Below are positions 463 through 62,697 of a stretch of DNA of 64,000 nucleotides, in pieces; positions within the stretch are counted from its first letter, which is position 1; the number at the start of each line of letters is the position of its first letter. This stretch comes from a virus. A program made the translations under genes and the position numbers. The stretch is from IMG/VR virus record IMGVR_UViG_3300025711_000007, positions 1-64,000 of that record. The stretch is one strand, 5' to 3'. The notes under the pieces are model-generated. The model searched no databases. It worked only from the letters and a program-made list of their open reading frames with translations, and was not told the origin of the DNA.

Positions 463-499
463 GTTGACGATGTCACCAGCGAGCGGTACGCTCCGGGTC
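463..499 (+). promoter_or_regulatory. sigma70-type leaderless promoter with palindromic operator
   Basis: TTGACG(464-469)-17 nt-TACGCT(487-492)-7 nt-ATG(500); GTTGAC-GAT-GTCACC overlaps the -35. Confidence 0.85.
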
Positions 500-4268: not shown

Positions 4269-4306
4269 GCCGGTCACCGTAGCACGTGTCAGGTGACAAC
4301 GTCACC
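4269..4306 (-). promoter_or_regulatory. leaderless promoter with perfect operator GGTGAC-N3-GTCACC
   Basis: palindrome 4292-4306; -10 TACGGT at 4281-4276. Confidence 0.75.
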
Positions 4307-4315
4307 ACCAAACGC

Positions 4316-4582
4316 TTGACGCTCGCCTGGCCGCGGTGCGACGCTGGCGGCGTGAGGAAGAATCCGCCGCACGACATCCACCACTGGAGCCCGGTACCCA
4401 TGCAAGCCGGAATCTACGCTTGCGCGGACCCCGAGTGCCGGATCCGCGGCCGGCGGTGCCGAGACGGCGTAGTCCGCGCCTACAAGGACCGGCGGCGGCA
4501 CGATCCGGACCCGACGGTGATGGACGGCGCCAGCCTGGCCCGCATTGAGCGGGCGTCGCGTCGCGAGCGCGACGACGAGTAG
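4316..4582 (+). CDS. possible Cys/His-containing hypothetical protein
   Basis: ORF fills the gap; start uncertain. Confidence 0.4.
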   Translation: MTLAWPRCDAGGVRKNPPHDIHHWSPVPMQAGIYACADPECRIRGRRCRDGVVRAYKDRRRHDPDPTVMDGASLARIERASRRERDDE

Positions 4583-4652
4583 CGGCGGGTGCCGGTCGTT
4601 GCCGCGGATCCGGTTTGACGGCGCTCGGTCGCCGCGGATACGTTCCGAAGTC

Positions 4653-4832
4653 ATGGGCACGGTGACGTCGCTGAGCATCCGCCGCGATCGGATTCGGATG
4701 GAACGCGTCGCCGCCGAGCTGCGGAGCGGCGACCCGGTCTACGGAGACTGGTGGGCGCTGCTCTACCTGCTCGCGCACGTCCGAGACGCGGCTCGCCGAG
4801 TATCGGGAGACCCGGGCCGCGCGGCGACCTAG
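4653..4832 (+). CDS. small hypothetical protein
   Basis: MGTVTSLSIRR...; promoter TTGACG(4615-4620)-18-TACGTT-8-ATG. Confidence 0.65.
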   Translation: MGTVTSLSIRRDRIRMERVAAELRSGDPVYGDWWALLYLLAHVRDAARRVSGDPGRAAT

Positions 4833-4993
4833 TTCGTGTGCGTGCAGGTCTTGCTCTGCGTGCAGCACATCCCGGTCGGTGCCGCCGTGCTGCACATGCC
4901 GCCACCGACCACGTCACCCATGTCGGTCGAGCTCAGGACCTTCACCGTCTCGCTGTTCAACTTGGTCTTCGAGTTACGCTTGTTCTTGTTCAC
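4829..4993 (-). CDS. double-glycine leader RiPP (lanthipeptide-like) precursor, 54 aa (not in ORF track)
   Basis: GTG start with GGAG RBS 6 nt upstream; MNKNKRNSKTKLNSETVKVLSSTDMGDVVGG-GMCSTAAPTGMCCTQSKTCTHTN. Confidence 0.75.
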   Translation of the reverse strand: MNKNKRNSKTKLNSETVKVLSSTDMGDVVGGGMCSTAAPTGMCCTQSKTCTHTN

Positions 4994-5118
4994 TTGGTGC
5001 TCCGTTCGTTAGCCGTCTTGATTGCCGGCTTGGTGAAGCTACTCGAGCAGTGCATGGTCGTCACCGACAATCGATCGCCTGCGCGGTGAGCGCGTCCTAC
5101 CTGCGCGGACTGCGATTG

Positions 5119-5179
5119 GGTGACATCGTCACCACGAATAGTTGACGACCGTCGGGTGGCGCAGGTACACTGCGCGCTG
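5119..5179. promoter_or_regulatory. operator palindrome plus leaderless promoter in divergent intergenic region
   Basis: GGTGAC-ATC-GTCACC 5119-5133; TTGACG(5142-5147)-18-TACACT(5166-5171)-8-ATG. Confidence 0.75.
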
Positions 5180-5494
5180 ATGACGAACACCAGTTTGGCT
5201 AAGTTATTGATGTACACGTTGGGTCCTGGGATTATCATGGTGGTGAGCGTCGCCGTCGCTGCCATGGTCAGTTGCAAGGCGCGGGACGCGCGGCTGTGGA
5301 TCGGCATGGACAGGTCAGCGGTCAGCTGCTCGTACGACGGGCCTCGGCGCGACCAGATGACGTGCGTCGGAGGCGGTGTTGTGTACAGGTGCGTGACCGA
5401 GGAGGGGTCCACGTGGCGCTGCGCGGCGCTCGTGCTCGGCGCGGGTCGGCCCGACGGGCCCTTAGAGAGTCCAGACGGGGTGGGTCCGAAGTGA
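5180..5494 (+). CDS. putative Cys-rich membrane lipoprotein
   Basis: hydrophobic N-terminus ending AMVSC (lipobox-like), four more Cys. Confidence 0.65.
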   Translation: MTNTSLAKLLMYTLGPGIIMVVSVAVAAMVSCKARDARLWIGMDRSAVSCSYDGPRRDQMTCVGGGVVYRCVTEEGSTWRCAALVLGAGRPDGPLESPDGVGPK

Positions 5495-62661: not shown

Positions 62662-62697
62662 GTTGACGATGTCAACTCGAAATTGTAGTCTTCTCTC
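62662..62697 (+). promoter_or_regulatory. leaderless promoter with perfect operator
   Basis: GTTGAC-GAT-GTCAAC; TTGACG-17-TAGTCT-6-ATG. Confidence 0.8.

Follow-up and report, generated by a model that had tools for sequence, protein, structure and literature searches.

The DNA analyzed here (the window) comprises 64,000 nucleotides, the first 64 kb of a 79,784-bp IMG/VR record (G000; 68% GC, estimated to be 68% complete) from a large uncultivated soil phage. In the variable region at its left end, a lone minus-strand gene is wedged among plus-strand genes. A first-pass annotation, made from the sequence alone, had described a 54-aa ORF with a GTG start and a GGAG ribosome-binding site, and had proposed that it encodes a lanthipeptide-like (double-glycine) precursor with a KLNSETVKVL leader, a DVVGG site and a 23-residue core containing four Cys and eight Ser/Thr. 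The ORF and the parts of the peptide read as claimed, and both the relatives described below and the ratio of synonymous to non-synonymous change back the gene. The features of the locus are:

4829–4993, minus strand: precursor peptide gene, 54 codons plus a TAG stop at 4829–4831; kept in relatives and under purifying selection
4993–4991, minus strand: GTG start codon
5000–5003, minus strand: GGAG Shine-Dalgarno core, 6 nt upstream of the GTG of the peptide gene
4901–4993, minus strand: leader, residues 1–31, with a basic Lys/Asn-rich N terminus, KLNSETVKVL and DVVGG
4832–4900, minus strand: predicted core, residues 32–54 (23 aa), starting GMCSTAAPTG, with 4 Cys and 8 Ser/Thr
4994–5179, no strand assigned: divergent intergenic region of 186 nt between the peptide gene (minus) and a plus-strand gene with a candidate start at 5180
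5119–5133, no strand assigned: palindrome GGTGAC-N3-GTCACC, 126–140 nt upstream of the peptide start

Results

The peptide ORF is a gene under selection

The minus-strand ORF at 4829–4993 is a real, selected gene. Since its frame is open for just 59 codons, it is not a fragment of a longer gene. The GC content at codon positions 1, 2 and 3 is 0.36, 0.51 and 0.93, respectively; the high third-position value is the coding signature of a 68% GC genome, and the low first-position value follows from a composition rich in Lys, Asn, Thr and Ser. Across the 23 core codons of five loci, pS is 0.84 and pN is 0.10 in the sense frame, indicating strong purifying selection. The L003 and L004 cores, for example, differ by 14 synonymous and 0 non-synonymous changes over 23 codons. 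The start codon, N terminus, GG (GA in L004) and stop fall at coincident positions in all relatives. A promoter scan of the minus strand returned no sigma-70-type promoter for the gene.

It is very unlikely that the true gene is instead the antisense ORF at 4836–5012 (plus), or that there is no gene here: although the antisense frame is open, shares its third codon positions with the sense frame and likewise has a pN (0.15) below its pS (0.60), selection is stronger in the sense frame, and it is the sense ORF whose start codon, N terminus and stop coincide across relatives, that has a ribosome-binding site ahead of it and that matches a known leader family, whereas the antisense ORF matches nothing. 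The antisense frame is moreover bound to be open, since Cys, Thr, Ala and Gly codons yield no stops when reverse-complemented.

Next to the gene, a plus-strand ORF at 4545–4832 has a strong GC3 signal from about position 4575, and its end overlaps the peptide stop (4829–4831) tail to tail; transcripts of the two would therefore run toward each other, and no terminator separates them. On the other side, the ORF at 5180–5494 (plus) diverges from the peptide gene and encodes a candidate 105-aa membrane protein or lipoprotein with a signal-like N terminus, a possible lipobox (M-V-S-C) and five further Cys. As the promoter-like sequence TTGACG-18-TACACT ends at 5171, the mRNA of this ORF could be leaderless. 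We considered its product as an immunity partner of the peptide and rejected it, since it has no homolog in the related phage G001 and is thus not a conserved partner. The motif GKTGAC-N3-GTCAMC, to which the palindrome in the intergenic region belongs, occurs six times without mismatch in the window (463–477, 1044–1058, 2948–2962, 4292–4306, 5119–5133 and 62662–62676). When one mismatch is allowed there are 7 matches, compared with a mean of 1.2 and a largest count of 4 in shuffled sequence. The left half of several copies reads as a TTGAC −35 box, and a phage regulator of early promoters probably uses the palindrome as its operator.

Relatives and carrier phages

A word-indexed search of 5.8 billion proteins identified one sequence at 98% identity (P0001) and four relatives, of 52–57 aa; scans of metagenomes and viruses supplied the DNA of relatives (L002 (= L006), L003, L004, L005, L007 and L008). 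GenBank phages contained no match to the peptide by megablast or tblastn. Among 25 virus records related to the window by terminase, the gene is present only in G001, where the ORF is conserved; the complete relatives G011 and G024 are without it. G000 and G001 each carry just one such peptide gene, and the family appears, as far as seen, to be confined to phages.

G001 is a complete phage genome of 117,394 bp with direct terminal repeats and 43% GC. G000 is collinear with it over 7.5–79.6 kb, at amino-acid identities of about 35–75%. Besides ThyX, an M23 peptidase, dCTP deaminase and a PAPS-reductase-like protein, G000 encodes a replication module consisting of a UvsW-like helicase, DnaB, primase, a family A polymerase with a LAGLIDADG insert, and RecA. 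The polymerase (L009:8303–11833; G000 70303–73833) is 1176 aa long, and its inserted LAGLIDADG domain is intein-like. A third complete relative, G011, has 62.5% GC over the 10-kb region examined. One collinear lineage (G000; G001, L010–L015; G011, L048) spans 68%, 43% and 62.5% GC at ~50% protein identity, a very wide spread for related genomes of about 117 kb.

Since no tyrosine or serine recombinase/integrase was found in G000 or G001, these phages are probably virulent. A Shine-Dalgarno core lies upstream of 50% of G001 ORFs, compared with a background of 10%; this usage argues against a Bacteroidota host and names no other.

The gene occupies unrelated genome positions

In G001 and its close relative L008, the peptide gene lies on the plus strand, two small ORFs downstream of recA, so that G000 and G001 carry the same peptide in different places and opposite orientations. 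In the interval that separates recA from the next gene conserved among them (G000 77057–79285; G001 93222–95886; L048:3512–8300 in G011), a gene that is Mre11/SbcD-like by eye, the three related phages carry different cargo, with the peptide in G001 and a beta-helix protein in G000. From these comparisons, we regard the interval as an accessory-gene hot spot.

A third context is represented by L003 (1–3257) and L007 (1–1417), where a tRNA array, resembling the tRNA clusters of large phages, surrounds the peptide gene, which runs in the opposite orientation. The L003 array contains 12 tRNA genes within 3.2 kb on a single strand, and 5 are seen in L007; in L003, an intrinsic terminator follows the peptide gene. 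The L004 flanks encode a serpin, a MarR-like protein and ORFans, and those of L005 encode ThyA, dCMP deaminase, a ParB-HTH protein and ORFans. The serpin (L004:5193–6308) is full-length (Pfam E 2.7e-104), and its contig is phage-like, ORFan-rich and 43.6% GC. L004 and L005 share nothing beyond the peptide with the other contexts, and PHROGs classed nearly all of their ORFs as unknown; with their dense ORFans, ThyA, dCMP deaminase and ParB-HTH protein, both contigs are phage-like, although not proven viral.

When all ORFs within about 3 kb of the gene were compared all-against-all across the five contexts, only the peptide locus matched, and there was no common neighbor gene. The gene is therefore a patchily distributed, mobile one-gene cassette, an accessory gene of phages.

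The precursor is an orphan in both phages

When G000 and the complete G001 were searched in six frames for protein families, no LANC_like, Lant_dehydr_N or DUF4135 (LanM) domain was found, and neither was a Radical_SAM, YcaO or Peptidase_C39 domain. ABC_tran (PF00005) gave only sub-cut-off P-loop matches in these genomes, two of them in recA, and the C39 peptidase domain PF03412 was absent both near the gene and elsewhere in G000 and G001. The LanB/LanC domains PF04738 and PF05147 were likewise absent from the flanks of L004 and L005, and no modifying enzyme lies near the peptide in any of the five contexts. The radical SAM control (PF04055) was positive in 14 of 14 genomes; the negatives for PF04738 and PF13575 are weaker than the rest, because their controls were positive in no control genome. 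The precursor is thus an orphan in both phages, without a modifying, cutting or export enzyme of its own. That the 64 kb contain no LanB, LanC, LanM or exporter, as first reported, holds and extends to the 79.8-kb record and the complete 117-kb relative.

The leader is of the double-glycine type

The window peptide follows the double-glycine rule, under which a GG, GA or GS site goes with hydrophobic positions −4, −7 and −12 and, in most cases, an acidic position −8: counted back from the first two Gly, its leader has V at −4, M at −7, D at −8 and L at −12, and then GG. Five of the six family members keep the hydrophobic residues at −4, −7 and −12. Because L004 has G-A at the cut site, the predicted cut is fixed after the first two Gly, before G-M-C-S-T. 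The C39 domain of LahT reads this pattern of hydrophobic −4/−7/−12 and acidic −8 residues (PMC6363468).

Against leader models, a check that the first-pass annotation had proposed, the peptide gave sub-threshold matches and none above a cut-off. The radical-SAM RiPP leader model TIGR04149 (GG_sam_targ_CFB) scored 23.7 bits (E 3.3e-5, residues 5–35), below its cut-off of 25, and outscored the class I lanthipeptide model NF038153 (lant_leader_L1a), which scored 13.9 bits (E 0.045), below its cut-off of 22. Four of five family members touch NF038153 (best E 0.0019) and two of five touch TIGR04149. A Pfam scan of the window peptide matched no family. LxLxKx5L leaders that end in GG have been described for class I LanAs, whose clusters often contain a C39 protease (Walker et al., 2020; PMC7268733). 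In the window this motif reads T-K-L-N-S-E-T-V-K-V-L, with the second Leu, the ET and the last Leu kept and the first Leu and the Lys replaced; the leaders of P0003 and P0005 fit it better.

A profile of the family, searched against 1.84 billion representative proteins, matched 74 at E < 1e-3. Nearly all (72 of 74) are peptides of 43–87 aa; P0010 and P0019 (132 and 134 aa) contain two matched stretches apiece. The leaders of the matches read K-K-L-x-L-x-x-E-T-[ILV]-[RK]-x-L...GG, and their cores are rich in Cys. When 71 of these relatives were scanned, 54 matched NF038153, 25 TIGR04149 and 14 L1b, and a few touched class II bacteriocin or ComC leader models. The nearest ESM Atlas clusters are labeled 'class I lanthipeptide leader domain' (score 0.89, 173 of 256 features shared), which we treat as a lead only. 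Together, the leader matches support kinship with the L1a-type leaders of class I lanthipeptides, by transitivity only and with no model cut-off reached by the window peptide.

The core is conserved and the leader is variable

Pairs of family members are on average 81% identical in the core and 36% identical in the leader. Among the four members of the CCTQSKTC type, 20–23 of the 23 core residues are identical (up to 100%), whereas the polymerase, RecA and terminase of G000 and G001 share roughly 50% identity, well under that of the core. RiPP families usually have a conserved leader and a variable core; the present family shows the reverse. The conservation of the core does not stem from recent transfer, since synonymous sites are saturated.

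Across a wider set of peptides from metagenomes, the pattern [MLIV]-C-S-T-x-A-P-[TS]-G-x-C...C is maintained, and three Cys and several Ser/Thr are conserved. In P0004, P0006 and P0007, Pro replaces the second Cys of the CC pair; P0004 and P0006 thus retain three Cys, whereas P0007, whose first CC position is in addition a His, retains two. The odd number of conserved Cys (three) fits better with thioethers than with disulfides only. Conserved Ser/Thr-rich content is typical of modified cores. Cys34 is N-terminal to every Ser/Thr of the window core, an arrangement that is unusual for lanthionine rings.

Two pattern scans of the genes of 185,579 bacterial and archaeal species, one genome each, returned pattern matches and no relative of the core. 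As the core is absent from these genomes, the peptide is no copy of the substrate of a known host cluster. A profile search of the PDB gave chance-level matches only (E above 8).

Discussion

The interpretation that we favor, to which we give about an even chance, is that this gene is a one-gene phage cassette encoding a double-glycine precursor that is matured by host machinery, with the core as its functional part. Host handling is proposed because the phage has no maturation or export gene. The peptide would be made during infection and passed to the host machinery, where cleavage behind Gly31 would fall to a peptidase-containing ABC transporter or to a C39 peptidase that stands alone. The core would probably be modified by RiPP enzymes of the host that recognize leaders of this type, namely LanB/LanC or possibly a radical-SAM enzyme, and could carry lanthionine, a radical-SAM thioether or no modification. 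The core would act on a target that is conserved across hosts, and the leader would drift to suit the enzymes of each host. What the analysis shows is a real, selected orphan gene that moves between phage contexts and whose leader is kin to this leader family; host processing, core modification and any activity are inferred. Weighing against this interpretation are the sub-threshold leader matches of the window peptide, the absence of the core from the 185,579 species genomes, the position of Cys34 and the reversal of the usual RiPP pattern of conservation.

A more ambitious proposal, which we put forward tentatively and hold to be possible at best, is that phages have evolved a RiPP core of their own, absent from the bacterial genomes searched and nearly unchanged in phages of 43% to 68% GC, and retune only the leader, feeding whatever host lanthipeptide or PCAT machinery is available in order to obtain an effector that serves the phage. 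Such an effector would, for example, block superinfection or rival bacteria, or aid lysis.

How does the peptide compare with known systems? It shares with class I LanAs, in particular the NF038153/pinensin-type family of Bacteroidetes, a short basic N terminus, a GG end, the motif hydrophobic-x-hydrophobic-x-basic-ET-[IV]-[RK]-x-L and a Cys/Ser/Thr-rich core of about 20–25 residues (PMC7268733). Unlike these precursors, it is borne by a phage rather than a bacterial cluster, is without LanB, LanC or C39 in cis, belongs to a family in which the core is conserved and the leader variable, and scores 13.9 bits where the cut-off is 22. The earlier identification as a lanthipeptide-like precursor survives in part: a double-glycine leader with a Cys/Ser/Thr-rich core, and kinship to L1a (54 of 71 relatives), stand, but membership in the lanthipeptide class is not established, since the peptide stays below every model cut-off, TIGR04149 outscores the lanthipeptide model and a synthetase is lacking nearby. 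Precursors of the TIGR04149 radical-SAM systems likewise have a GG leader followed by a Cys-rich core and provide the best direct model match; in contrast to those systems, neither phage has a radical SAM gene, and the score is under the cut-off of 25. The GG/GA site and the spacing pattern are also those of PCAT/AMS double-glycine peptides such as ComC, class II bacteriocins and LahA (PMC6363468), although the phage has no transporter gene and the core is far richer in Cys, Ser and Thr than unmodified bacteriocins. Sublancin on SPbeta is likewise a bacteriocin-type structural gene carried by a phage (bioRxiv 10.1101/2020.10.01.322628). However, elements of the SPbeta type are whole clusters (enzymes, exporter and immunity) in temperate phages, whereas here the precursor is alone and no integrase was found. 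In the literature that we searched, there is no description of lone precursors in phages; the phage-borne bacteriocins described there are whole clusters in temperate phages.

It is also possible, although we consider it unlikely, that the product is an unmodified double-glycine peptide, which a host PCAT cuts and exports to release a 23-mer that serves as a bacteriocin, microcin or pheromone-like signal and that contains disulfides at most, with no lanthionine or other RiPP chemistry. The leader obeys the PCAT rule, modifying enzymes are absent from the five contexts and from both phage genomes, class II bacteriocin or ComC models are touched by a few of the profile relatives, and the 4 Cys of the G000-type core suffice for two disulfides. 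Set against this, relatives of the leader are mostly of the lanthipeptide L1a type, P0004 and P0006 have three Cys and P0007 two, and the conserved Ser/Thr are typical of modified cores.

A small intracellular phage protein that binds a metal or a host factor and is neither cut nor exported, its leader likeness being convergent or vestigial, seems to us improbable. Every direct model match is below its cut-off, no partner gene occurs in any context and the family is phage-only as far as seen, all of which speaks for such a protein. However, the leader-family match spans the whole leader, and GG/GA occupies the same place in all members. The A4 profile gives E 7e-20, a value that reflects the core as well, because A4 contains near relatives that share it (P0006–P0014, P0075). 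The three conserved Cys, without a CxxC or His pattern, would make a poor metal site, and there is no PDB match.

Comparably improbable is the last alternative, that the peptide is a decoy or inhibitor, of no use as a product itself, that blocks production of a host peptide, such as an anti-phage lanthipeptide, by filling the leader-binding site of the RiPP synthetase or PCAT of the host. The first-pass annotation had raised a decoy as one option. An orphan whose leader is of a type recognized by host enzymes would suit this role, anti-phage class I lanthipeptides do exist in Actinobacteria (bioRxiv 10.1101/2024.06.26.600839), and, as no integrase was found, a decoy would act in lytic growth. 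Yet a decoy requires its leader and not a fixed core, and here the core is nearly invariant (81% mean identity) and the leader drifts (36%), the opposite of what a leader-only decoy would show. Because the core is conserved while the leader changes, a real product is favored over such a decoy. In addition, anti-phage class I lanthipeptides have been reported only from Actinobacteria, whereas the carriers of the peptide span 43% to 68% GC. We also considered membership of the peptide in the anti-phage family itself and rejected it, since the TxDxCxxxCxxxC motif of that family is absent from the window core.

Returning to a precursor that is matured by the host, we find a lone phage-borne precursor that moves between unrelated genome positions, whose core is held more tightly than the polymerase or RecA of the phage and which has no bacterial counterpart in the genomes searched. 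Taken together, the findings suggest that phages exploit host RiPP machinery using substrates of their own design. If confirmed, this would establish a new class among the auxiliary genes of phages, and the core would offer a 23-residue scaffold, also new, for activity testing. It would also be a case of natural leader swapping, in which a fixed core is re-addressed to different enzymes.
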